From the IMG/VR virus record IMGVR_UViG_3300029537_000007: a stretch of DNA of 37,563 nucleotides; one strand, written 5' to 3'. Position 1 is the stretch's first letter. Each line of letters begins with the position of its first letter. Under the pieces are notes generated by a model. It had not been told where the DNA came from. It worked only from the letters and a program-made list of their open reading frames with translations, and made no database searches. This stretch comes from a virus. Below are positions 14,127 to 31,720 of this stretch, in pieces. A program made the position numbers and the translations under genes.

Positions 14127-14642
14127 TCACCTCCAAGGGTGGCCTTGCAGCCACTCCCATTCGTCTTCACAACCACGCACAGCGGCAATATAGCTTGGAT
14201 ACATTGTTTCACTGCCCAAGAGCGGGCGGAAGTCTTTCTCCGCTTCCTCACAGGCTCTATACCGCAGCATATGGCTGTCCCACTCTTTCCTGTATGCCTC
14301 CAGATCTTCCAGCTCTTTTGCACGCTGTGCGCGGCGCTGAACGGCCATGGCGCGGGTATCAGTCTTTTCATCATCTGTAAACCCAAAATCCGCGCCAAGC
14401 CGTATGACCGCCTGTGAAAAGCTGAGTCCAAACAGCTTCATCACGAAACTGATCACGTCGCCCCCGGCGCCGCATCCGAAGCATTTCCAGCGTTTGTCAT
14501 TCGCATATGTGCCAAGGCTCGCGGTTTTCTCGCTGTGGAAAGGACATACGATAAAGCCTGCACGATTCTGTTCAAAGCCATACTTGGCGAAGATATCGCG
14601 CATCGTAAGGCTGCCCTTGATAATGTCCACCGCACGCCCCAT
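14127..14642 (-). CDS. CHC2 (DnaG-type) zinc-finger protein, stand-alone primase zinc-binding domain
   Basis: 171 aa with CPFHSEKTASL...WKCFGCGAGGDVISFV; too short to hold a TOPRIM/RNA polymerase domain. Confidence 0.75.
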   Translation of the reverse strand: MGRAVDIIKGSLTMRDIFAKYGFEQNRAGFIVCPFHSEKTASLGTYANDKRWKCFGCGAGGDVISFVMKLFGLSFSQAVIRLGADFGFTDDEKTDTRAMAVQRRAQRAKELEDLEAYRKEWDSHMLRYRACEEAEKDFRPLLGSETMYPSYIAAVRGCEDEWEWLQGHPWR

Positions 14643-15160
14643 CAGAATGCCTCGCTTTCCAAAAGCTCCTTTGCTTCCCGGTACAGCACCTCGCGTATCA
14701 ACGGCCCGCTCAGCTTCGGCTCGCAGAAAAGCAGCTGGCAGTTATACCGCGCCAGCCACGCCGTCATACTTGCTATCAGCGCCTGCGGCGTCATTCTCGT
14801 GCGAAATTCACCGTCCCAGGCCTGTTCCCACGAGCCGTTTTCCACAAGCAGATAGATTTTCGCGCCCATGCCGGCCGCGCGTTCAAATTCGCGTGTGAAC
14901 CTGTCCCGGCTGCGCGTGTAGCATTGGCACAACTCGTCAAGGCTCATTTTCCGTTCCACGGCCACACGCCCGGCAAGGCTCCACCAGTCGCCTGTGGGCA
15001 GCCGTAACTTCGCGGAATAGTCCCCGAAGTCCAGCTTCTGCCTCTCGTACGGGCATTCCATTTTCTTTAAACGAAGCCGCAGACGCGGCGTGTCCTGTTC
15101 CCGTGTGTCCACCAGTATCACCATGCTGTCAAGCACGGCTTTTTGCTCTACCGGATGCAT
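14642..15160 (-). CDS. ERCC4/XPF-Mus81-type structure-specific nuclease
   Basis: 172 aa with ILVDTREQD, FGDYS and VERKMSLDEL (the ERKxxxD signature). Confidence 0.75.
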   Translation of the reverse strand: MHPVEQKAVLDSMVILVDTREQDTPRLRLRLKKMECPYERQKLDFGDYSAKLRLPTGDWWSLAGRVAVERKMSLDELCQCYTRSRDRFTREFERAAGMGAKIYLLVENGSWEQAWDGEFRTRMTPQALIASMTAWLARYNCQLLFCEPKLSGPLIREVLYREAKELLESEAF

Positions 15161-20171: not shown

Positions 20172-20209
20172 ATCCTTAAGAGTTCATGCTATCTAGGAGG
20201 AATGGTCGA

Positions 20210-21625
20210 ATGTCAAAAACGGTTAAAATTCTAAATTGGACGTTTTCTGTATTCTGTATTCTTGGATTTTTTGTCTATTTTCCAAGTATTGCAGCTTTTT
20301 TGTTTTTGCTGGCCGGAATCGCATCCTTACCCATAAAGATAATACAAAATCTATATCCCCCATTTTTTCGCAAATCTATCAAAACCGCTCTGATTGCCGT
20401 TTTATTCTTTTGGGCTGCGCTAATTGCACCCACTCAAGATTCAACCGCGCAAACTATACCTACACAACTGCCATCTTCTTCATCCTCAAGTATTTCTTCA
20501 ATGGTGAGTTCGTCCAAAACAGTTGTCGAATCCGATAGTAATGCCTCATCCACTGTTGAATTAGAAAATACCTCTCCGGGAAACAGCATATTCCAAATCA
20601 CATTTATTGATGTTGGGCAAGCCGATAGCGCCCTTGTTGAATGTGATGGACATTACATGTTAATCGACGGTGGAAACGTGGAGGACAGCAACAGAATATA
20701 TTCTATCCTCAACAGCAAAGGTGTTTCCTATCTTGATTATGTTATTGGCACACATGCACATGAGGATCATATCGGAGGGCTTTCCGGCGCACTCTCCTAT
20801 GCGAAAGCTGGAATTGTATTTTGTCCTGTAAATAACTACGATAGCGACGCATTTCGTAATTTCAAAGCAAAGGCAGACGATAACGGCGGAATCGTTATTC
20901 CACACGCAGGCGATTCTTTTTCGCTTGGTTCAGCATCCGTTGAAATTCTTGGTCTTAACGCCTCCACGGACAACACAAACGACACGTCCATAATTCTAAA
21001 AATTGTTTACGGAAATAATTCTTTTCTATTTACTGGTGATGCGGAATACGTAGCAGAGCAGGCCGTGATCGGAAAGGACTTGTCTTCAGACGTTTTAAAG
21101 GTCGGACATCACGGAAGCGAAACTTCTACCTCTTATATATTTTTAAGAGAAGTAATGCCCACATACGCAGTTCTGTCAGTTGGGCAGGACAACTCATACG
21201 GACATCCGGATGATGTTACATTGAGCCGTTTACGCGACGCAGATGTAAAAGTATTTCGAACAGATATGCAAGGAGACATTATCTGTACCTCGGATGGCCA
21301 AACCATAACTATTACGCCAAGTCGTAATCCTGATGTAGAAACAAATCCTACCACCAATGACAGGAATGGACAAAACGCTAGTGACACGGCTTCTCCGCCG
21401 CAACCTGTTGAGCCACAAACCCCACCTGTACAGTCTCAGGCCCCTTCTGTTGAGCCCGATCAGCCCGTTGCGCAACAAGCGCCTCAAGGGGATTTAGTGT
21501 GGATTAGCGGTAGCGGAAAAAAATATCATAGCAATCCTAATTGTAGTAACATGAAAAACCCATGGCAAGTTACCATTGGCGAAGCTCAAGCGCAAGGCAG
21601 AACACCTTGCAAAAAATGTTATTAA
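20210..21625 (+). CDS. Membrane-anchored ComEC-type metallo-beta-lactamase-fold hydrolase
   Basis: The start is refined to ATG 20210 (AGGAGGAA 7 nt upstream). N-terminal TM helices and a Ser-rich linker precede an MBL core (IDVGQADS, GTHAHEDHIGG, VGHHGSETS). A Pro-rich linker and a C-terminal YHSNPNCSNMKNP...PCKKCY module follow. Confidence 0.75.
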   Translation: MSKTVKILNWTFSVFCILGFFVYFPSIAAFLFLLAGIASLPIKIIQNLYPPFFRKSIKTALIAVLFFWAALIAPTQDSTAQTIPTQLPSSSSSSISSMVSSSKTVVESDSNASSTVELENTSPGNSIFQITFIDVGQADSALVECDGHYMLIDGGNVEDSNRIYSILNSKGVSYLDYVIGTHAHEDHIGGLSGALSYAKAGIVFCPVNNYDSDAFRNFKAKADDNGGIVIPHAGDSFSLGSASVEILGLNASTDNTNDTSIILKIVYGNNSFLFTGDAEYVAEQAVIGKDLSSDVLKVGHHGSETSTSYIFLREVMPTYAVLSVGQDNSYGHPDDVTLSRLRDADVKVFRTDMQGDIICTSDGQTITITPSRNPDVETNPTTNDRNGQNASDTASPPQPVEPQTPPVQSQAPSVEPDQPVAQQAPQGDLVWISGSGKKYHSNPNCSNMKNPWQVTIGEAQAQGRTPCKKCY

Positions 21626-21774: not shown

Positions 21775-22890
21775 ATGTTATGTAAAAAATGCGGCAAAGA
21801 AATTCCCAACGAAAGTATGTTCTGCAATTGGTGCGGAAAGAAACAAACCATGCAGCAAAAGAAAGGAAAACAGCGCGGCAACGGTTCTGGCACAGTGTAC
21901 CAGCTCCCCAATAAAAAGTGGAGAGCTGAAGTGCGTGTCATGGCCAATGGAGCCAATATACGGCGCACAAAAGATGGGTTTCTCCGAAAAAAAGACGCTC
22001 TGGACTATTTGCCCATTTTGAAAAACGGGAAATACACTGTCTCGGAAAAGTCGCCTATTCTGCGCGACCTTTATAACCTTTGGAAAGAAACAAAAAAATA
22101 TAAAGGAATGTCAGAAGACAAAAAATCTCATTATCTCACGGCATGGGGCCGCCTCGAGGAGTTACAGCACCGGGATATTCAAACGCTTACATTCCTCGAA
22201 ATGCAAGAAATTGTTGACGGCGCGCCGGGCGCATATTACCCAAAGCGTGATATTAAAACGCTTTTATCCCATATGTACAAAATTGCAGAAAGAGAAGAAA
22301 TACTTCCTCCAAACAAAAACTTAGCTCAATATATCGAATTGCCTCAAACGCCCAAATCCAAACGCGACGCATTTACATCAGAGGAGGTAGCAAAGATATG
22401 GAAAGACTACGAAAATGGAAATAATTTTGCGGGATATGCTTTGGCAATGATCTATACCAGCATGCGGACAGGCGAGTTATTTGCACAACAGGTAAAAGAC
22501 ATTTTCCTCGATAAAAAATACATGATTGGGGGAATAAAAACGGAGGCGGGTATAAATCGAGTGATTCCATTGGCTGATTGCATCATTCCCGTAATAAAAA
22601 AGCAAATCAGCCTATCCAAAAAAGGCGGAATCATCGACATGCGGATAGAAGATTTTTACGAAATGTGGGCTGAGTTCATACAGCGCACAGGGATACGCCC
22701 CTTGGATGCATATTGCTGCCGTCATACAACCGCGACCGCCCTTGCCGAAAAAAAAGTAGCCCCCGCCATCATAAAAGAAATCATGGGGCACACTTCATAC
22801 AACACAACTCTTCGATATACCCATATATCCGTAGATGAAAAAGTAAAAGCAGTAAATAAGTTAAGAAAGAAAAAAGAAGACAAAAAGTAG
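21775..22890 (+). CDS. int: Tyrosine integrase with an N-terminal zinc ribbon
   Basis: 371 aa with CKKCG...CNWCG at the N-terminus, CCRHTTATAL (HxxR box) and GHTSYNTTLRYTH (catalytic Tyr box); next to the tRNA-derived attP. Confidence 0.9.
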   Translation: MLCKKCGKEIPNESMFCNWCGKKQTMQQKKGKQRGNGSGTVYQLPNKKWRAEVRVMANGANIRRTKDGFLRKKDALDYLPILKNGKYTVSEKSPILRDLYNLWKETKKYKGMSEDKKSHYLTAWGRLEELQHRDIQTLTFLEMQEIVDGAPGAYYPKRDIKTLLSHMYKIAEREEILPPNKNLAQYIELPQTPKSKRDAFTSEEVAKIWKDYENGNNFAGYALAMIYTSMRTGELFAQQVKDIFLDKKYMIGGIKTEAGINRVIPLADCIIPVIKKQISLSKKGGIIDMRIEDFYEMWAEFIQRTGIRPLDAYCCRHTTATALAEKKVAPAIIKEIMGHTSYNTTLRYTHISVDEKVKAVNKLRKKKEDKK

Positions 22891-23010: not shown

Positions 23011-23062
23011 ATAAAAATAAAACCGCACCGAAAGCTCAAAAACGGCTTTACAATGCGGTTTT
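23011..23062 (-). terminator. Phage-supplied terminator for the reconstituted tRNA-Ser
   Basis: On the minus strand AAAACCGCA...TGCGGTTTT forms a 9-bp outer stem with an inner AAAGC/GCTTT stem, followed by AUUUUUAU, immediately 3' of the tRNA CCA end. Confidence 0.6.
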
Positions 23063-23063
23063 A

Positions 23064-23126
23064 TGGCGGAGAAGGAGGGATTTGAACCCTCGCGCCGGTT
23101 TCCCGACCTACGCCCTTAGCAGGGGC
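23064..23126 (-). other. attP core: 3' 63 nt of tRNA-Ser(GCU), from the anticodon stem to CCA
   Basis: The reverse complement is GCCCCTGCTAAGGGCGTAGGTCGGGAAACCGGCGCGAGGGTTCAAATCCCTCCTTCTCCGCCA. It contains a CUGCUAA anticodon loop, a long variable arm, a T-arm and the 3' acceptor strand. No D-arm or 5' acceptor strand lies upstream. Confidence 0.8.
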
Positions 23127-23176
23127 TGAAAAAACCACGCAAATAAGCCAAATATCGGACATTTTGTGTCAATAGA

Positions 23177-23201: not shown

Positions 23202-23684
23202 ATGTCCAAGATAGAAGGATGTTGCGTAGTGAAATCGACGAATTTGCTCGAAATTGTTCGTAATCAATCTATTTCAATCGAAAATAGTAATTTTTTACCT
23301 GAAAGAGATAATATACCAGTACATTCTTTCAGGGGGTTGATTTTAATCAAAGACCCGCAAAAAGAACTAAATCGGCTAGGAGTATCGCCCAAATTGATTG
23401 GATATTGGGACTTGTTAACAGCCATTGAACTAGTCTTAAAAAACAAATCGGCATTGACCGCTATGATAAAAGAAATCTATATTCCAACAGCAGCCAAAAG
23501 GTGCGTTGAATGGGATTGTCCCGAAGCTTCTATAAGAAAAGCAATCCGCTTGATCTGGCAACGCGGGAATCGGGATTTGTTAGAAAGGATTATGAATCAT
23601 TCCCTACCTGAGCCGCCTCCCGCGGGAGAATTTCTTGGCGCCTTTGCTTTTTACTTAGAAGATGCATCAGAGGAATCCAACTGA
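23202..23684 (+). CDS. Stand-alone Spo0A C-terminal (DNA-binding) domain protein lacking a receiver domain
   Basis: The segment LGVSPKLIGYWDLLTAIELVL...IYIPTAAKR...EASIRKAIRLIWQRGNRDLLERI...PPPAGEFLGAFAFYL parallels the Spo0A_C pattern (KGY.YL..AI, ..VERAIRHAIEVAWSRGN, PTNSEFIA). Confidence 0.65.
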   Translation: MSKIEGCCVVKSTNLLEIVRNQSISIENSNFLPERDNIPVHSFRGLILIKDPQKELNRLGVSPKLIGYWDLLTAIELVLKNKSALTAMIKEIYIPTAAKRCVEWDCPEASIRKAIRLIWQRGNRDLLERIMNHSLPEPPPAGEFLGAFAFYLEDASEESN

Positions 23685-23925: not shown

Positions 23926-23959
23926 TTTTTTAGTGATTTGTGAGAAAGGGAGCCTTGTT

Positions 23960-24373
23960 ATGGAAAAACCCATAAGTACCATCATTGTTAGAAATATTTT
24001 GGGTTGTATTTGCGGGTTGGTGGTAGGCTGGCTTGCCTATATGTTCATAGGTGTGATTTTCGGATTTTTGTTTTCCATCGAATGGGTTGCGAAGCTGCTA
24101 AGTTGGCCATCCACGCCTATTCTATATATGTCAACCGGTATGGGGGCATTCGGAGCATTGCAGGCTCATACTGTTTCGGATAAAATCTGCTTAGAAAATT
24201 CAAAGGGATACAAATGGGGCACAATTGTTGTCGGAGTTGTAATTCTCGTTTATTTTGTGTATTGCACTATAGTCAATTGGATTCGAGATGGATTCAGTGA
24301 TTTTGTGATTGGATACTTTTTTACTGCAGTGTGCGGTGTTCTTCTTATCAACGAGGGACGTGGAAAAGATTAG
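23960..24373 (+). CDS. Four-TM membrane protein (superinfection-exclusion-type candidate)
   Basis: The start is refined to ATG 23960 (AAAGGGAG upstream). Four hydrophobic helices. No family recognised. Confidence 0.55.
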   Translation: MEKPISTIIVRNILGCICGLVVGWLAYMFIGVIFGFLFSIEWVAKLLSWPSTPILYMSTGMGAFGALQAHTVSDKICLENSKGYKWGTIVVGVVILVYFVYCTIVNWIRDGFSDFVIGYFFTAVCGVLLINEGRGKD

Positions 24374-24473: not shown

Positions 24474-24520
24474 CCGCCCCTGTCCGCTATCCACGGACGG
24501 GGGCGGCCTCTTTTGTGTAA
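24474..24520 (+). terminator. Rho-independent terminator
   Basis: CCGCCCCTGTCCG-CTATCCA-CGGACGGGGGCGG forms a 13-bp stem (one G.U pair) followed by CCTCTTTTGTGT. Confidence 0.65.
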
Positions 24521-24620
24521 AAAGTGTTTTTGTGTTATACTTATAAAGGGAGAAGCACTAAATATAGTATCTTGTCAATTGGCAAAATGTAAAAAAATAA
24601 CGCGAATTTACAGAAAATTG

Positions 24621-24649
24621 TTGAACTTTTCCAGCGGCTGACATATAAT
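24621..24649 (+). promoter_or_regulatory. Promoter of the Panacea-domain operon
   Basis: TTGAAC (24621)-17 nt-TATAAT (24644); imperfect palindrome TTGTCAATTGGCAA at 24572..24585. Confidence 0.55.
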
Positions 24650-24720
24650 ACATTGTACCGATGTAAACATTAGTGAGATTATGTAAACTCATACCAACTA
24701 AAAAAGAAAGGTGATGTACA

Positions 24721-25149
24721 ATGACAGTATTTGATACTGCAAAATATATTCTTGAAAAAAAAGGTTGCCTTTCAACGATGAAATTGCAAAAGCTATGTTA
24801 TTACGCTCAGGCGTGGAGTTTGGTATGGGATGATGCTCCGCTTTTTGATGATGATTTTGAAGCGTGGGCAAATGGGCCAGTATGTCCTACTTTGTTCCGT
24901 GCAACACAGGGAAACTATTCGGTGACAGCAAAGGATGAAAAAGGAGATTCTTCAAACCTTTCTGCCAATCAGAAAGATACGATTGATACTGTCTTAGCAC
25001 ATTATGGAGACAAAAATGCTCAGTGGTTAAGTCAGTTAACACATATGGAAGATCCGTGGAATAATGCTCGCAAAGGAATCCCAGCAGGAGTAGGGTGCAA
25101 TCGTATTATTACGAAGGAGAGCATGGCGGAATATTATGGCGGCCTCTAA
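24721..25149 (+). CDS. Panacea/DUF4065 (SocA/GepA-like) antitoxin-type protein
   Basis: AKYILEKKGCLSTMKLQKLCYYAQAWSLVWDDAPLFDDDFEAWANGPVCPTLF matches the DUF4065 signature (KLQKLlYYaq...pLf.e.feAW.yGPV). Confidence 0.8.
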   Translation: MTVFDTAKYILEKKGCLSTMKLQKLCYYAQAWSLVWDDAPLFDDDFEAWANGPVCPTLFRATQGNYSVTAKDEKGDSSNLSANQKDTIDTVLAHYGDKNAQWLSQLTHMEDPWNNARKGIPAGVGCNRIITKESMAEYYGGL

Positions 25150-25615
25150 AAAGAAAAAAACGGAAAAGGTTGTTAAACAGAGCTATTCTCCTAATGGACG
25201 AACTGTTAGGCAAACTGAAAATCCTGAAAGATATTATAATTTACATCCGTCTTGGAATTTTAATACATGTGACATTGGAGGCTCATGGGATTTTGCAAAA
25301 GAAAGCGTTGGAGAATCTTTATGGGATGAAATTCTACCTCGCTTAAAAGCTTGGGAATCACAAACTTGGAACGAAATTTTGATTGTTGCAAAAGACCATA
25401 ATCATTCGATTGATGTCAACGCACTGAATCCTTGTGCACAGACACGGTTGACGGAGAAATTTATTGAGTGGGATTCTATTGTATCGTTACGTTTGACTAA
25501 TACACATCGATTATATGGTTATATCATAGGCTCAGTATTCAATGTTCTATGGTACGATACGAAGCATGGAGATAATTCAGAATGTGTATGTCGTTGTAGA
25601 AAAAAACATACATAA
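25136..25615 (+). CDS. Unrecognised 159-aa partner of the Panacea protein (candidate toxin)
   Basis: It overlaps the upstream gene by 14 nt and has a Lys-rich N-terminus. The C-terminus SLRLTNTHRLYGYIIGSVFNVLWYDTKH loosely resembles the YoeB/RelE terminal beta-hairpin (SRRIT.EHRLVY...H). Confidence 0.45.
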   Translation: MAASKKKKTEKVVKQSYSPNGRTVRQTENPERYYNLHPSWNFNTCDIGGSWDFAKESVGESLWDEILPRLKAWESQTWNEILIVAKDHNHSIDVNALNPCAQTRLTEKFIEWDSIVSLRLTNTHRLYGYIIGSVFNVLWYDTKHGDNSECVCRCRKKHT

Positions 25616-25617
25616 CA

Positions 25618-25655
25618 AAGCCCCCGGCCAGGAGGAATCCTGAACCGGGGGCTTT
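25618..25655. terminator. Bidirectional terminator between convergent genes
   Basis: AAAGCCCCCGG-16 nt-CCGGGGGCTTT forms an 11-bp stem with A/T tracts on both sides. Confidence 0.65.
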
Positions 25656-25657
25656 GT

Positions 25658-28600
25658 TCATCCGTTTAACAGGTCATACAACTGCATCGCCTGATACTGG
25701 CTGTATCCGGCATCTACGAGGGCGGCAATTTTATTTTTCTTCGCGCTGCCGCTTATAGTCCTGTCCGTACCGGGGACTTTATCCCCGGTCACATCCTTGA
25801 TAATTGCATGCGCAAACAGGATTTCCGCCCAGTTTGCATACTGGGTTCCATCCAGCGCGCTTGCCTCCTCCATACGTTTTTCCGTGGTCCTGCTTAAATC
25901 CGCGCCGAACAGCTCATTTTCAGCAACATCCTTTGCCATAGAATACGCATTATCCAGTACCGACACTTTTTGCTCATCCGTCAAGTTATCAAACTTGGGC
26001 ACCAGATATTCCGCAATATTATAGGACATCTGCCCCATTTCCCGTTGATAGTCGCTGTATTCCCTGTTGGTAAGGCTTTTGCTTTCGCCGTCTACCGTAA
26101 CACTCCATCCGGCTTTGCGGGGAAATACCTTGTTATTCCCGGTATCCTGAAACAGCTCCAGAATCACATTGTCGATAGGAGATTCATTTGCATTCCCCAA
26201 CGTTCCGGGGCTTACGAATTGTGCAAACGCCGCTTCACCTGTGCTGTTCTGCCGCGTGATCGGTCTGCCCCAAGTGTCATATGCCGCAGGTAGAGATTTT
26301 GATGCGCCGGGAATTTTTGCCTGCATTCCTCCAAACAGAGTGCCGAGCCAGTCTCCTTTGCTGTATGTTTGGCGCTGTACGGGGTCCACAGTGCGCGCCG
26401 TTGCCCCAACTGTAGATGGAATAAAACTTCCTGGAATTTCCTGCACCAATTCCGCAACACCGCCGGGCAGGCCCTCATAGCTTGAAAACAAATCTTCGAT
26501 GGATTTAACAGGCGATGCTTCTATCCAGGTGTTCAACGCAGTTTTTCCAGCTGCAACCGAAGCGTCGGCAAAGCTGGCGTCAGGGTTCTTCTCCAGTTCG
26601 GCCATGATCGCTGCCCCCATCATCAGGCTGCTGGCTGCGGGCTGTGCCCAATCTACCGTGTAGTATTTGTCTCCAACATGTACAGCATTCGGCTTAAACC
26701 CTTGCGTCCGCATAAATGCGGCCTCGTCCTTATCGTCGCTTTCAGGCCCTGTAAGAATCCCGGCTTTGAAAAGCTGTGCGCCTAACACCATCAGCCCTGT
26801 TCCGGTAAGACCCTTTGAAATGTCGTCAATGAACTGCGCGGCATCCGTCTGGCCTTTCACATGTTTTGCGGCGGCGGAAATCAATCCTGCAGGGCTGTAA
26901 TCCGCAATGCGCATTGCAATGTTGGCCGGGGTTTTTGTAAACGTAAGCAGAAAGTTCCCCATCCCGCCCACGCGGTTTGTTGAACGTTTTATAGACGAAA
27001 GCATTTCCGTCAACGCATTGTCATCTTTAAACGTTGCCTTCATTGCTTCGTCCAGCGCTGTTGTAATGGCCTCCGGGGGGACGTCGTTCACGCTTTTTAT
27101 CCCACGTGCTTCAATGTAGCTTGCAAGGCGGTCTCTGAAAAACTTGTCCACAAAACCCGCGTCGCCAAGCTCAAGCAAACCATAAGTAAGCTGCCGTGTA
27201 TTTTCCAGTATTCCCTTTTCGCTCGTCATGCCGGAAAACAAGTCCTGTTGCGCCGTTTTTTGAGATACTTTGTTCAGCTCATATGCTGTTTTGTCTACGA
27301 GCTGCGAAAGCCAATCGCTTTTAATTTCCCCCTTGAATATTGTTTTGTCCCGAGCGTATTGGTTCAGGTCGTTCAATGCGTTTTGCCCTTTTGCGCCCGC
27401 ACCCTGTCCCTGAAATTCATAATATTTTGTATCACCCGAAAGCACACTCCGCATATTGTCGGCAACCTGAGATGCCAGCGTTTTGCTTTCCTTGGATACA
27501 TGCAGCGCCTGCGTGGGTGTAAAATCAGGGTTTATCCGATGAGTGATGTCCTGAATCAGCGCGGATACTTTCCCGGAGGCTCCCTGTACAGGCATCATCG
27601 CGGCGTTCGCCAATGTATTTCGCACCATTGTGCGCGGATTCAACAGCATCCCAATACGGCGCAGTTCCAGCAACTTTTCATATACCGTAGCGGGATATTC
27701 CTTACTGATACGCTTGCCGACATTCTCCATTGCGGTTTCCACCGCCTGCGTGTCGCCGGGGTCAATGTTCTTGAATGCGTCTATCTCCGCATCCGTCAGT
27801 TCAAAGTCGTTCCACTTCCTGCCAAACTTCTTTGCACCAGCGGCGTTCATCGTGTCTACCTGCCGTTGGATATACTGCAACGCGGTCATGGGGTCCGCCT
27901 TTGTCAGCGCGATCACCGCCGCCTGCGAAAACTGGCCGCTGCGGGTAAGCGCAGCAGACATATCCCGCAGAACATTCACCGCTCCGGCCCGGTCTCCCTT
28001 GGCGATAAGGTCATCAGCAATCATCTTGCCAAGCGGAACCGCCGCCGGATCTGCGGTTTTCAGCATATCGCTGAAAGCGTTCCTTGCTTCTGTTTCACCG
28101 CGTGCGAATATTTCTTCTGCGCGCGCCACAGTCGTTTCATTGGAGAGCGACTTGTACAATTCCGGGTTGTCTATGAACTCCTGCTTCACTTCGGTGGGCA
28201 GGTCGCTTTTGGTCCGCAGGCTCTCGGCAAAACCGCGCTCTTTCATACCTGACGGGATTTCAGGTGCGTTCTGTGTTTGTGCCCTAGCATTGGGTTGAAC
28301 CCTTGCGCTTACAGAGGATGCCGCACCGTCCGCCCTTTCCGCCAATGGTTTCGCTGAAACCGTCTCAGAGAGGGAGGTTCCCAATTGTCTCTGCGCACTC
28401 TGCGCATCAGCTTTTAATGCTGACAAGCTGGAATTTATCGCTTCCGCTACGCCGGTATAATCAAAAAACAAATCTCCAAATACTTCCTGCGCCTCATGCG
28501 GGTCATTTTGCAATCTTCCTGCAAGCTGTGCGGACAATTCGCGATACAGCGTTGTCAAATTTTCAAGAGGCAAATCACCGTCGTACTCTGCGGTGTAAGC

Positions 28601-31600
28601 ATTTAAATAGCTCTTCAGCAAAGGGTTGATTTCCCCATTTTGACCGATCGGGTTTATCCCGCTTTCCTGCATTGCCTCCAGCGCAGGCTCGTAAAGGTTT
28701 TTCTTTACGCGTTGCATATGGTGCATGGCCTCATGGGCTGCAATTTCACGCGCCGGGAGGGACGCGTCGTTTCTTAGCAGCACCGTACCATCGCGCAGCG
28801 TTTGCGCATCCCCGTTCATAAACGCATACGTGCCGTTCACTTTTAAAATGCCGGGGCCTTGAATAACTTCAGGTATTATCCCATATTCAGAGAAAAACTG
28901 CAGCGCATCCTTTGTCCCCTGCGTGTACTCTGCCTGCACTGCAGGTATCGTTTTTATTTCTGCCTCTCCAATTCTTCTAATTCTTGCAATGTCAGCATTT
29001 CTCCTGTCTTCGAATAGTGCCTTTGCTGTCTCATCCAGCCTTCGATGAGTTTTCGAACTCTCGCTTCCTTCTCCGGTGACAGTTCTACCGGCTGTTTCAG
29101 CTGCTCCGTCGTAAGATAAGGCACCAGCGAGGCCAAAACGTCCTCCTTGTCGCCCATCTTCTTGTTGTCCATTCAAAACACCTCCATTGCGTTTATTATC
29201 CGCTGATATCACTCCTGTGTCAACATCTGCCCTCCGGTTTGCCACAGGTTTTGCACCCTGTTCCAACAGGCTGTCACGGTAGGCCAGCGCCTCATCATAG
29301 TCCATCTCAGGCAGGGCGGCAAGTTCTTCATCAGTGAACATGTGGAAGCCGCCCTCGGTTTCACTAAGCCCCAGTTTTGCCTCAATCTGTGCCGCGTCCA
29401 AGCCGTCTTGCAACTTCATCACATACACATCTTTAGGGCCATAGTTCCACCCCTCTGGTGCGTATTCTGGATTCCACTTCACTTTCGCCACGGGCTCAAA
29501 ACCCATCTTGCTATAGTTCTGCACGAGTTTTTCCCCATAGCAGTCCAACTTTACGCCCCCGTTATCCACCGCCGTGACGACCATCTGATAAGAAAGTTTT
29601 TTGCCCTCGCCTCCCGGGATGCGAAACACTGCTTCAATATCTCCATCGGCGGTAACAGCAGCTCCCGACATGCCATCCTTGCTCATAAAAGTAACGGCCC
29701 CACTGTCAGCCAATTCCTGCGGGTTTTTGGGGCTGACCATGAGGCCGTTTTTATTCTCTTTGATTGCCCTGTTAAGCTGCGCACTAAAATATTCAGGATC
29801 GGCGGTGCTGTCCACCAGTTCCTGAGTAGTCGCACCAGCACGGCTATATGCCGTCCCATCGCTTACAGGCTGTCGAAAAACTCTTTGATTTCCTGCGGCG
29901 TTTCGCCCCGCTGATATGCTGCCAAGGCTACTTCCCGCTCTGCCGGATTCAACTCCGCCAATACCTGTTCCAAAGTCAGTTCCATTCTGCGCACCTCCAC
30001 TAACCCCATTATATTCTGTTTTCAAAGTACCGTCAATGCTTTCTTCTGCGCCAAGTTTCAGCAACGCCCGTGTCTTGCTTGCCGTCTCGGGCAAGGTCAA
30101 TCCGGTCGCAGCTTCAAAGGCCGCTCTGTTTTTGCCGCCGGGCTTCAAAGTCTCGATCTGTGCGTTGGTAAGTGTATTATTGTAGAACGCATTCACCAGC
30201 GCGTCTGTTTCGCTCTGTACGGGTGTTTTGTTGCCCAAAGGAAACATGTCTGCCATGGACGGAACGGACGCTTCTGTGCCTGTTGCAATCGGCTGTGCGG
30301 CGTTTCCCGTTTCGCTATCAGCATTGTACTGATATATCTGTGAAATATCATAGGTCGGACGCGTGCTATTAAGTATCATGTTTCCGCCGCCGAACAGTCC
30401 GCCTATGGCCGCACCGCCGCCGAAAGCCTTTATTTCCCGTTCCGGGTTAAACACGGCGTTTTCGTCTGTCATGGAAAAATACTCTGCATCCTGATTGTAC
30501 AGAATCTTCGCCAGCAGATTTGCAATCACGTTTTGCTTTACTTCCTCGCTGCCTTCCTCATACATAGTTTGCAGAACACCGCCAATGCCGTTCTTGTCCA
30601 TCATGCCCTCGACACCGCCGCCTACCTCAATGCCGGAAGAGACCAGGCCGTTTGTAATGCCGTATACCGTAGCGGCAAGTTCGTTTGCGCCTGATGCTTT
30701 TGCATCTTCATAGGATGCCCCTGCCGTCCTCATAAAGCTTGACCAGAATGAAGGGTTTTTCATTGCTTCCTGTATCACGTTCGATACCGTGGAACCAGAT
30801 GCTCCGCCAAGCTGCGCAGCGTCACTCGCGCCGCCGCTCATCAATGTAAGCACAGCATTGGGCAATGCTTGAACCGCAGATTGGAACAGTGAGCCTGGGG
30901 TCTCCATCCCAAGCTCCTGATTGGTCGCAGCGGCACGTGCCTCGTAGCCAGAACCGTCATTTTTATAAAAATTCAACACATCCTGTACCGGCTTGACTGT
31001 AATAACGTCAGGAAGAATAAAATCGGCCGTTTGTGCGACGCTGCGGTTAAATCCGGAAAGCCCTGCCATTACATTATCTTTCACAAAATCGCTGTACAGA
31101 AGATTGTTTACTTTTTGCGGGTCAGTCAAAAAATCCAGAACGTTTGCCACACCTTCCGAAAGATCATAAAGTGTTTTTGTAGCAAACTCTCCTGCTTTGT
31201 CTAAAAGACTTGCCGATGGTGATTTTTCACCAAGCAAACGGGCGTCGTTGCGTCCCGCACCCGTTCTTGAAAAACTTCCACCGGCACCTTGCACGGACGC
31301 ATTTTTTTGCTGTACGTCCGGCGTAGCCTGCCAATTGAGCTGCGTAAACAAATCGTTTGCGTAAGCAATTTTTTCAGCCTCGGTCATTTTGCTCAAATCC
31401 ACAGGGGCTGTTTGTGATGCTTGATGCGTTATGGGTTGCGGTTGAGACGGCTGCGCGGTGGTAAGTTCCACAAGATTTGCAGGAGCGTTTTCTTTCCAAT
31501 CCGTTTTATCCGGATTATTCACCCCAAAACCTTTCCAACCGCTTCCGGTGTCCAGGCCACCGGTTTTCGGCCTCTGCGGTGCGGCAGTTGGAGCTGGATT

Positions 31601-31720
31601 TGGATAGAGCTGTTGAAAAATATTAGCATCGTACAACTTTTTCTTGGCTGTATTTTCAAGTTCCCATGTATTTTTCAGTGGCGCGTCCAACCAATCGTAT
31701 TGCGGGTTTCTTTTAGCCAT
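25658..31720 (-). CDS. 2020-aa multidomain (polyvalent-type) protein, probable virion-delivered internal or ejection protein
   Basis: Single ORF. A Gly-rich hydrophobic segment AFGGGAAIGGLFGGG is present. A GNAT-like block sits at about aa 631-772 (IEAVFRIPGGEGKKLSYQMVVTAVDNGGVKLDCYGEKLVQNYSKMGFEPV). An HExxH motif AAHEAMHHMQ sits at aa 996 (nt 28735..28712). A large helical C-terminal half follows. Confidence 0.6.
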   Translation of the reverse strand: MAKRNPQYDWLDAPLKNTWELENTAKKKLYDANIFQQLYPNPAPTAAPQRPKTGGLDTGSGWKGFGVNNPDKTDWKENAPANLVELTTAQPSQPQPITHQASQTAPVDLSKMTEAEKIAYANDLFTQLNWQATPDVQQKNASVQGAGGSFSRTGAGRNDARLLGEKSPSASLLDKAGEFATKTLYDLSEGVANVLDFLTDPQKVNNLLYSDFVKDNVMAGLSGFNRSVAQTADFILPDVITVKPVQDVLNFYKNDGSGYEARAAATNQELGMETPGSLFQSAVQALPNAVLTLMSGGASDAAQLGGASGSTVSNVIQEAMKNPSFWSSFMRTAGASYEDAKASGANELAATVYGITNGLVSSGIEVGGGVEGMMDKNGIGGVLQTMYEEGSEEVKQNVIANLLAKILYNQDAEYFSMTDENAVFNPEREIKAFGGGAAIGGLFGGGNMILNSTRPTYDISQIYQYNADSETGNAAQPIATGTEASVPSMADMFPLGNKTPVQSETDALVNAFYNNTLTNAQIETLKPGGKNRAAFEAATGLTLPETASKTRALLKLGAEESIDGTLKTEYNGVSGGAQNGTDFGTGIGGVESGRAGSSLGSISAGRNAAGNQRVFRQPVSDGTAYSRAGATTQELVDSTADPEYFSAQLNRAIKENKNGLMVSPKNPQELADSGAVTFMSKDGMSGAAVTADGDIEAVFRIPGGEGKKLSYQMVVTAVDNGGVKLDCYGEKLVQNYSKMGFEPVAKVKWNPEYAPEGWNYGPKDVYVMKLQDGLDAAQIEAKLGLSETEGGFHMFTDEELAALPEMDYDEALAYRDSLLEQGAKPVANRRADVDTGVISADNKRNGGVLNGQQEDGRQGGRFGLAGALSYDGAAETAGRTVTGEGSESSKTHRRLDETAKALFEDRRNADIARIRRIGEAEIKTIPAVQAEYTQGTKDALQFFSEYGIIPEVIQGPGILKVNGTYAFMNGDAQTLRDGTVLLRNDASLPAREIAAHEAMHHMQRVKKNLYEPALEAMQESGINPIGQNGEINPLLKSYLNAYTAEYDGDLPLENLTTLYRELSAQLAGRLQNDPHEAQEVFGDLFFDYTGVAEAINSSLSALKADAQSAQRQLGTSLSETVSAKPLAERADGAASSVSARVQPNARAQTQNAPEIPSGMKERGFAESLRTKSDLPTEVKQEFIDNPELYKSLSNETTVARAEEIFARGETEARNAFSDMLKTADPAAVPLGKMIADDLIAKGDRAGAVNVLRDMSAALTRSGQFSQAAVIALTKADPMTALQYIQRQVDTMNAAGAKKFGRKWNDFELTDAEIDAFKNIDPGDTQAVETAMENVGKRISKEYPATVYEKLLELRRIGMLLNPRTMVRNTLANAAMMPVQGASGKVSALIQDITHRINPDFTPTQALHVSKESKTLASQVADNMRSVLSGDTKYYEFQGQGAGAKGQNALNDLNQYARDKTIFKGEIKSDWLSQLVDKTAYELNKVSQKTAQQDLFSGMTSEKGILENTRQLTYGLLELGDAGFVDKFFRDRLASYIEARGIKSVNDVPPEAITTALDEAMKATFKDDNALTEMLSSIKRSTNRVGGMGNFLLTFTKTPANIAMRIADYSPAGLISAAAKHVKGQTDAAQFIDDISKGLTGTGLMVLGAQLFKAGILTGPESDDKDEAAFMRTQGFKPNAVHVGDKYYTVDWAQPAASSLMMGAAIMAELEKNPDASFADASVAAGKTALNTWIEASPVKSIEDLFSSYEGLPGGVAELVQEIPGSFIPSTVGATARTVDPVQRQTYSKGDWLGTLFGGMQAKIPGASKSLPAAYDTWGRPITRQNSTGEAAFAQFVSPGTLGNANESPIDNVILELFQDTGNNKVFPRKAGWSVTVDGESKSLTNREYSDYQREMGQMSYNIAEYLVPKFDNLTDEQKVSVLDNAYSMAKDVAENELFGADLSRTTEKRMEEASALDGTQYANWAEILFAHAIIKDVTGDKVPGTDRTISGSAKKNKIAALVDAGYSQYQAMQLYDLLNG

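Follow-up and report, generated by a model that had tools for sequence, protein, structure and literature searches.

The window, meaning the whole stretch of DNA analyzed here, is the 37,563-nucleotide IMG/VR virus record IMGVR_UViG_3300029537_000007. The subject of this analysis is a two-gene cassette on its + strand that is composed of the overlapping open reading frames (ORFs) panA (24721..25149, 142 amino acids) and panT (25136..25615, 159 amino acids). We consider it likely that this cassette is a type II-like PanAT toxin-antitoxin (TA) module of PanT cluster T1, in which a predicted ribonuclease (RNase) toxin is silenced by PanA, and that a temperate Ruthenibacterium lactatiformans phage carries it, as accessory cargo, at its attL-proximal end. 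The features of the locus are as follows.

23060..23140, + strand: attP junction and tRNA-Ser-like fragment, the left end of the prophage in integrated copies.
24474..24516, + strand: upstream intrinsic terminator, a 13-bp GC-rich stem followed by a T-rich tail.
24621..24649, + strand: candidate sigma-70-like promoter, TTGAAC-17-TATAAT, with 10/12 matches.
24707..24715, + strand: panA Shine-Dalgarno sequence, AAAGGTGAT, 6 nt before the ATG, read from the sequence.
24721..25149, + strand: panA, a standalone Panacea/DUF4065 protein of 142 amino acids without a helix-turn-helix or other N-terminal domain.
25136..25149, + strand: overlap of panA and panT, 14 nt shared from the panT start codon to the panA stop codon.
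25136..25615, + strand: panT (cluster T1), with a Lys-rich disordered N-terminus, a conserved PSWxF..D..W motif and a predicted C-terminal BECR/RelE-like domain at residues ~60–145.
~25614–25658, both strands: bidirectional terminator hairpin between panT and a convergent gene for a protein of 2,020 amino acids.

Both ORFs and their 14-nt overlap are present as given in the original prediction, and the same −14 overlap is common to most close panT homologues. The terminators that had been proposed at the two ends of the cassette correspond to two strong hairpins. The upstream hairpin (24474–24506) has a free energy (dG) of −29 kcal/mol and a z of −5.4, and 0/200 shuffled sequences fold equally well. 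Terminator 24474..24516 insulates the cassette from the membrane-protein ORF at 23933..24373. The downstream hairpin (~25614–25658) has a dG of −34.6 kcal/mol on the + strand and −36.8 kcal/mol on the − strand, with z values of −6.8 and −6.2, respectively. The sole Shine-Dalgarno-like sequence ahead of panT is AAGGAG at 25114–25119, which is located 16 nt before the panT ATG. Because panT is without a well-placed Shine-Dalgarno sequence, its translation is probably coupled to the termination of panA translation inside the overlap.

A direct repeat, ATGTAAAC, appears at 24661–24668 and 24681–24688 (20-nt spacing), past the candidate −10 box and ahead of the panA Shine-Dalgarno sequence. This repeat could be an operator, but PanA is without a DNA-binding domain, and chance may account for an 8-mer present in two copies. 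Two candidate RNA elements were rejected. An 8-bp complementarity of the 5′ leader to the panA start codon does not form a significantly stable fold (z −1.5). The Rfam RT-17 match at 24568–24670 on the + strand, in the intergenic and promoter region, reaches 25.2 bits, where the gathering score is 40.4 (E 0.085), and is probably due to chance.

The product of panA was identified as a Panacea protein, as had been proposed from its DUF4065 signature. The match to Pfam PF13274 (SocA_Panacea) has an E of 2.4e-20 and a score of 74 bits, against a gathering score of 25.7, and covers residues 22–113. A match to phrog_1281 appears at an E of 4.4e-39. The score of 52.7 bits against the NCBIfam SocA equivalog is below the cut-off of 190. 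A Panacea domain is shared with the antitoxin of SocAB, the type VI TA system of Caulobacter, whereas PanT is unrelated to SocB. Identical PanA is found on ~276 contigs, where it is named "Antitoxin SocA-like Panacea domain-containing protein" and attributed to R. lactatiformans. Identical PanT and PanA proteins are both recorded from this species and from hundreds of metagenomic contigs. In the contig collection, 464 blocks index an identical PanT, and the cassette is common in human gut metagenomes.

The product of panT gave no match to a Pfam family. A diverse set of 112 family members, 27–57% identical to PanT, was assembled, and no Pfam domain was detected in any of these 112 proteins. 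The first homologue search returned 44 clusters of "hypothetical proteins" of 147–167 amino acids with identities of 45–82%. When a profile of these clusters was compared with 1.84 billion representatives, 1,929 clusters at the 50% identity level were obtained at E ≤ 1e-3 and 878 at E ≤ 1e-10. The family is found across many phyla and in phages. A tblastn search of PanT against 50,697 phage records gave no match at E ≤ 0.01. One entry of the representative library, P0051 (345 amino acids), has the full T1 domain at residues 2–150 followed by ~195 further residues, and represents a fusion or, alternatively, a read-through gene call.

The pairing of PanT with PanA was found to be strict. In 7/7 neighborhood look-ups of homologues 27–57% identical to PanT, the gene just upstream, on the same strand, is a SocA_Panacea gene, and the gaps between the two genes are −14, −14, −14, −1, +21, +3, and −8. 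The surroundings of these seven pairs are unrelated and include an IS21/integrase island, phage tail genes on both sides, a phage early region, a position past a lysis module, a cyanobacterial integrase island, a site next to secE–nusG, and a site next to a umuC-like gene. Genome loci were also compared, 79 in all, and these were drawn from Clostridia, Negativicutes, Synergistales, Acidobacteriota, Alpha- and Gammaproteobacteria, and Cyanobacteria; a panA ORF lies directly upstream wherever upstream DNA is available, and the −14 overlap is present in most. At some of these loci the gap seems to be −55 to −134, or +100 or more, which is mostly an effect of the longest-ORF start rule or of interrupted frames. 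The conserved linkage to Panacea on which the original prediction depended is therefore borne out, and because the pairing held throughout the look-ups and the genome loci, the functional linkage of panA and panT is very well supported.

Sequence comparison identifies the PanT family of the window as the cluster that Kurata et al. 2022 (PMC8832971) listed as PanT cluster T1. In the portion of Dataset S1 of that paper covered here, Bacterium 1XD21-70 is listed with PanA WP_121706052.1 and predicted PanT WP_121706053.1 (pT1/T1, order A|T, gap −14). The locus recovered from the same bacterium (L020) contains a PanT homologue that is 55% identical to the window protein, with PanA upstream at −14. 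The sole other PanAT pair listed for this bacterium in the same portion is also T1. In addition, the T1 member of Salmonella phage Emek, YP_006560566, was aligned with the family profile using hhalign with a probability of 96.9% and an E of 1.7e-10 over 135 columns. The assignment follows from the correspondence of the L020 locus to a T1 row in that part of Dataset S1 and from the independent alignment of the Emek member. Cluster T1 has at least about 217 rows in the portion of Dataset S1 covered, similar to the MqsR cluster T2, and it ranks among the two largest clusters of PanA partners there. The tested T1 members are given a predicted "mRNase" mode of action in Table S1 of the supporting information (PMC8832971). 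The original prediction could not place the partner in any family and held that its fold and target, if it is a toxin, were undescribed. The latter is not supported, since the family is the published cluster T1, whose tested members already carry the "mRNase" label. The proposal of a novel PanA–PanT module survives in part: a Panacea gene is coupled to a conserved partner, but the family had already been predicted in 2022.

The window pair resembles the other T1 pairs as far as these are described in the part of the source covered. A standalone Panacea antitoxin comes first, a hypothetical partner of ~150 amino acids comes second, and the overlaps are small (−1 to −20). The features of PanAT membership found in the window pair are a Panacea domain above the gathering score, an adjacent partner on the same strand (≤100 nt), and pairing across species. 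The window copy (WP_205487363.1 / WP_058723910.1) is not among the Dataset S1 rows listed in that part. Two features set it apart: its subgroup, which is from Clostridia, has HGDNxxCVC inserted as an extra stretch close to the C-terminus, and it is located on a temperate phage next to attP. In this subgroup the tail of PanT (residues 144–159, 25565–25612) contains the insertion HGDNxxCVCRSxKKHT, whereas the rest of the family has only H-x-V-C-P-S-x-K-K-H-T. The His/Cys-rich tail, including the terminal His, might bind metal.

The evidence for an RNase-like domain was obtained from the defense-system models of PADLOC. PanT matches the NsnC model with an E of 2.2e-4, and residues 65–144 align with profile positions 203–278 of 284. 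The same model is matched by 83/112 diverse family members, with a best E of 1.9e-9, and no other defense family recurs. The conserved core of the family is at residues ~60–145. A putative catalytic triad is kept at H90 (109/112), R125 (108/112), and H144 (111/112), all inside the NsnC-matched stretch. The other best-kept positions among the 112 members are W139 (111), G128 (110), D141 and A101 (109 each), W40 (108), and E74 (107).

The matched region of NsnC is the PB-BECR1 domain of the Menshen system (Li et al. 2025, NAR, PMC12065111), with which residues 65–144 of PanT share the match itself, the H-R-H triad, and the assignment to a RelE/YafQ-like fold. PanT is without the inPIN N-terminal domain of NsnC, and neither NsnA (ParB-DUF262) nor NsnB (ABC ATPase) is a neighbor. 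The neighborhood of PanT consists instead of a membrane ORF, a Spo0A_C protein, and PanA. In contrast to NsnC, the PanT domain is paired with a Panacea protein and has its own N-terminal extension with the PSWxF..D..W motif. The homology between the T1 domain and PB-BECR1, with its H-R-H triad, is a contribution of the present analysis and was not found stated in the cited PanAT and Menshen papers.

Two AlphaFold2 models of PanT were built from alignments of 38 and 112 sequences, with a mean predicted local distance difference test (pLDDT) score of 81.7 and 91.6, respectively, and a core above 90. Both models have one topology, with a strand at 39–41, helices at 61–74 and 78–84, a strand at 89–93, a helix at 99–107, and strands at 114–119, 125–131, and 134–141. 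In the Foldseek searches of the Protein Data Bank (PDB) with these models, ~43 of the top 50 matches in both runs are from the RelE/ParE superfamily (YoeB, RelE, RelK, HigB, YafQ, HP0892/HP0894, ParE, PrpT, and the CARF-RelE protein Cami1). The template modeling (TM) scores, normalized to the target, reach 0.63 for Thermus thermophilus RelE, 0.59 for archaeal RelE, 0.55–0.56 for YafQ, and 0.52 for Staphylococcus aureus YoeB. A Foldseek search of the BFVD viral library gave nothing useful. The vague resemblance of the C-terminus to YoeB/RelE noted in the original prediction thus pointed in the right direction.

In the predicted fold, helices come before an antiparallel sheet of three to four strands, as in RelE, YoeB, YafQ, and HigB. 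Like these toxins, PanT is small and basic, and its gene is one of two in an operon. Its S-x-R-x-T-x-x-H-R-L motif is in register with S57–R65 of YoeB, and a C-terminal His is located past the last strand, comparable to H83 of YoeB and H87 of YafQ. The same register appears in a non-significant alignment, in which PanT S117-x-R-x-T-x-x-H-R125 falls on YoeB S57...H64-R65. PanT differs from the RelE-type toxins in having ~60 extra N-terminal residues and an inserted strand-helix (89–107), in the absence of a significant sequence or profile match, in its H-R-H triad in place of the E-R-H-Y of YoeB or the H-D-H of YafQ, and in its antitoxin, which is a Panacea protein rather than YefM, RelB, DinJ, or HigA. 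On the basis of the NsnC homology and the models, the C-terminal domain of PanT is predicted to be a BECR/RelE-fold RNase, an assignment that is well supported by lines of evidence that converge but are each weak or indirect, and is not proven.

A more distant relative was found in NCBIfam NF046006, the "MAG6450 family", which the PanT family consensus matches with an E of 1.3e-8 over profile positions 23–102 of 103. The scores of window PanT (19.6 bits) and of the family consensus (35.3 bits) are below the curated cut-off of 40 bits, and NF046006 is a Mollicutes subfamily that is related to the PanT family but distinct from it. MAG6450, a conserved hypothetical protein, adjoins MAG6440, "prophage protein ps3", and "prophage ps3 protein01-like" is also used as an annotation of Panacea proteins. 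By this analogy, MAG6450–MAG6440 is probably a Mollicutes branch of the PanA–PanT pairing.

The position of the cassette on the phage was mapped by comparison of integrated and excised copies. The window encodes a temperate siphovirus-like phage with a major head protein, portal, large terminase, primase/helicase, tail fiber, and endolysin-type peptidase, together with a CI-like repressor and a tyrosine integrase. The integrase (21775..22890, + strand) has an N-terminal zinc-ribbon. In two integrated copies (contigs L097 and L098), bacterial genes for a xanthine/uracil permease, TatD, and AIM24 extend up to the equivalent of position 23060, and the contigs are homologous to the window only from 23060 onward. 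In excised or circular copies (contigs L099 and L100), the integrase is directly upstream, arranged as in the window. The attachment junction was placed at ~23060 because the integrated copies match only from there, while the other contigs carry the integrase upstream. The junction overlaps a tRNA-Ser-like fragment of 60–76 nt at ~23065–23140, where a complete tRNA was not called by ARAGORN. The distance from the junction to the start of panA is 1.66 kb, in agreement with the cargo site next to attP that had been suggested. The AT-richer island in which the pair had been placed is real but wider than the pair: the GC content is 0.395–0.43 across ~18–26 kb, compared with 0.51–0.61 elsewhere, and this low-GC arm spans the whole lysogeny and accessory region. 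Contig L097 was considered as a natural copy without panA and rejected, since its DNA has panA intact with one base different and the gap exists in the gene table only.

In the mechanism proposed for the PanAT module, a single transcript would extend from the candidate promoter at 24621–24649 to the hairpin at ~25614–25658. PanA would be translated from its good Shine-Dalgarno sequence, and PanT would probably be made by ribosomes that re-initiate within the 14-nt overlap, which would keep the level of PanT at or below that of PanA. The C-terminal domain of PanT would act as a BECR/RelE-fold ribonuclease with an active site composed of H90, R125, and H144. By extension from validated PanAT pairs (Kurata 2022, Ernits 2023), the standalone Panacea protein would bind PanT directly and keep it inactive. 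Most PanAs act through direct binding and not as ClpXP adaptors (Kurata 2022, PMC8832971). If PanA were lost, or if it sensed a signal, for instance another phage infecting the cell or the prophage being lost, PanT would be expected to cleave RNA, either mRNA on the ribosome or tRNA/rRNA. Cleavage would then stop translation and could result in growth arrest, abortive infection, or prophage addiction.

Several observations weigh against a silenced RNase toxin. The main counter-evidence is the toxicity record of T1, in which one of three members is toxic and unrescued and two are non-toxic (n = 3). The Clostridium cadaveris T1 protein WP_074844970.1 was toxic, and its own PanA failed to neutralize it; no toxicity was reported for the members from E. 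coli MOD1 and phage Emek (PMC8832971). A further protein labeled "mRNase" and non-toxic in Kurata 2022, Listeria phage B025 gp28, is not a member of the family (hhalign, 0.45%) and was left out of this tally. No match to Pfam RelE, YoeB, HigB, YafQ, or ParE was detected with PanT, its C-terminal half, the family consensus, or the 112 members, and sequence and profile searches of the PDB with the PanT family gave only noise. The hhalign comparisons with E. coli YoeB itself, with a YoeB profile (P 0.02, 2% probability), and with YafQ (P 0.26, 0.2%) are not significant. The E. coli YoeB sequence was verified against 2a6q_E, and that of YafQ was verified as well; the YoeB profile is shallow, since its 123 sequences are 82–99% identical to the query. 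Together, the null Pfam, PDB, and hhalign results give no direct sequence link to the canonical RelE families. In Foldseek no single match to the PDB is significant (best E 0.3 and 0.15 for the two models). Because no profile reaches the RelE families, the RNase assignment rests on the homology to NsnC's C-terminal domain, which is itself a bioinformatic prediction. Because PanA is without a DNA-binding domain, the usual autoregulation is not evident. The promoter that had been assigned to the pair is present as a motif at 24621–24649, but promoter-like sites in the region are not enriched, with 10 found against 8.4 ± 3.0 expected from shuffled sequence. Because such sites are no commoner than in shuffles, TTGAAC-17-TATAAT is a candidate only and is no evidence alone.

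In the main rival explanation, the pair is an abortive-infection sensor-effector system and not a classical TA pair: PanT alone would be latent, and PanA would license or activate the RNase on infection rather than sequester a toxin that is always active. The finding that two of the three tested T1 members are non-toxic in E. coli, and that the toxic one is unrescued by PanA, favors such a system. The idea of Panacea as a sensor (Ernits et al. 2023), the homologous PB-BECR1 domain, which is a regulated effector of the Menshen defense system, and the prophage cargo position of the cassette also favor it. The antitoxin-first order and the translational coupling are, however, typical of type II TA pairs, and other standalone PanAs neutralize their own toxins directly. 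The non-toxic Emek member also bears on the question. In this homologue (L095, 14764..15637) the equivalent of H90 is kept, and the profile alignment has Ala and Phe in place of R125 and H144. The lack of toxicity may then be due to a degenerate site rather than to latency. From this alignment, part of T1 may be catalytically degenerate, and some of the non-toxic results may reflect such members; window PanT, unlike Emek, keeps all three putative catalytic residues. We regard the sensor-effector explanation as possible but doubtful. A broader version of it is equally tentative, in which T1 would be a distinct BECR RNase lineage common to the most abundant Panacea-linked modules and to the Menshen effectors, with PanA as an infection sensor that frees or activates a latent H-R-H RNase.

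It was also considered that PanT, though it has the RelE/ParE fold, might not be an RNase but a ParE-like gyrase poison or a non-catalytic protein that binds RNA or the ribosome. This fold hosts both activities (Ernits 2023), and ParE structures are among the Foldseek matches. The near-invariant His-Arg-His is located at positions comparable to the catalytic triads of YafQ and NsnC's C-terminal domain, which would be unexpected in ParE-like proteins, and RelE, YoeB, YafQ, and HigB were ranked above ParE in the fold search. This explanation is improbable. In a third alternative, the pair would have no part in conflict and would serve, for instance, in phage regulation or nucleic-acid processing, its TA-like layout being incidental; the TA status of T1 is a prediction, and two phage or prophage members are non-toxic. 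This alternative is very improbable. The two genes recur as an isolated unit in many phyla, in mobile as well as chromosomal settings that are unrelated to one another, as selfish or defense modules do and a function specific to phages would not, and the PanT domain is homologous to a defense-system effector.

Other genes of the phage were observed in the course of the analysis. The first gene past the attachment junction (23202..23684, + strand) encodes a Spo0A C-terminal DNA-binding domain alone (PF08769, E 2.9e-17), without a receiver domain. Such a prophage-borne effector domain could disturb the sporulation control of the host. Between the repressor region and the integrase, the gene at 20186..21625 (+ strand) encodes a protein of 479 amino acids with a metallo-beta-lactamase fold. 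It faintly resembles Apyc1, an anti-Pycsar nuclease (17 bits, with the cut-off at 50), which probably reflects the shared fold only, though it may be an anti-defense candidate. This gene is missing from the variant L100. An ERCC4-domain nuclease (14642..15160, − strand; PF02732, E 3e-11) is encoded inside the replication/recombination module. The convergent ORF at 25658..31720 (− strand, 2,020 amino acids) has no Pfam domain, and its sole PHROG match, of unassigned function, covers residues 638–747. The length of its product differs among otherwise near-identical phage copies (1730, 1772, 1917, and 2020 amino acids), and a divergent or indel-rich stretch is found within this ORF at ~28330–29979.

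The cassette of the window is another member of the predicted PanAT family T1 and represents neither a new toxin class nor a new kind of system. What is added here is the T1 assignment, the size of the family, the strict linkage to PanA, the homology to PB-BECR1 with the H-R-H triad, and the mapped location at the end of the prophage. Cluster T1 is very large, has no Pfam model, and has an ambiguous toxicity record. The window copy is a reasonable representative of T1, with an intact triad in an insulated prophage cassette that is common in gut metagenomes. If confirmed, the homology between T1 and PB-BECR1 would tie the PanAT and Menshen system types together. If PanA were such a sensor, the prophage cassette would be an extremely widespread abortive-infection system and not a classical addiction module.

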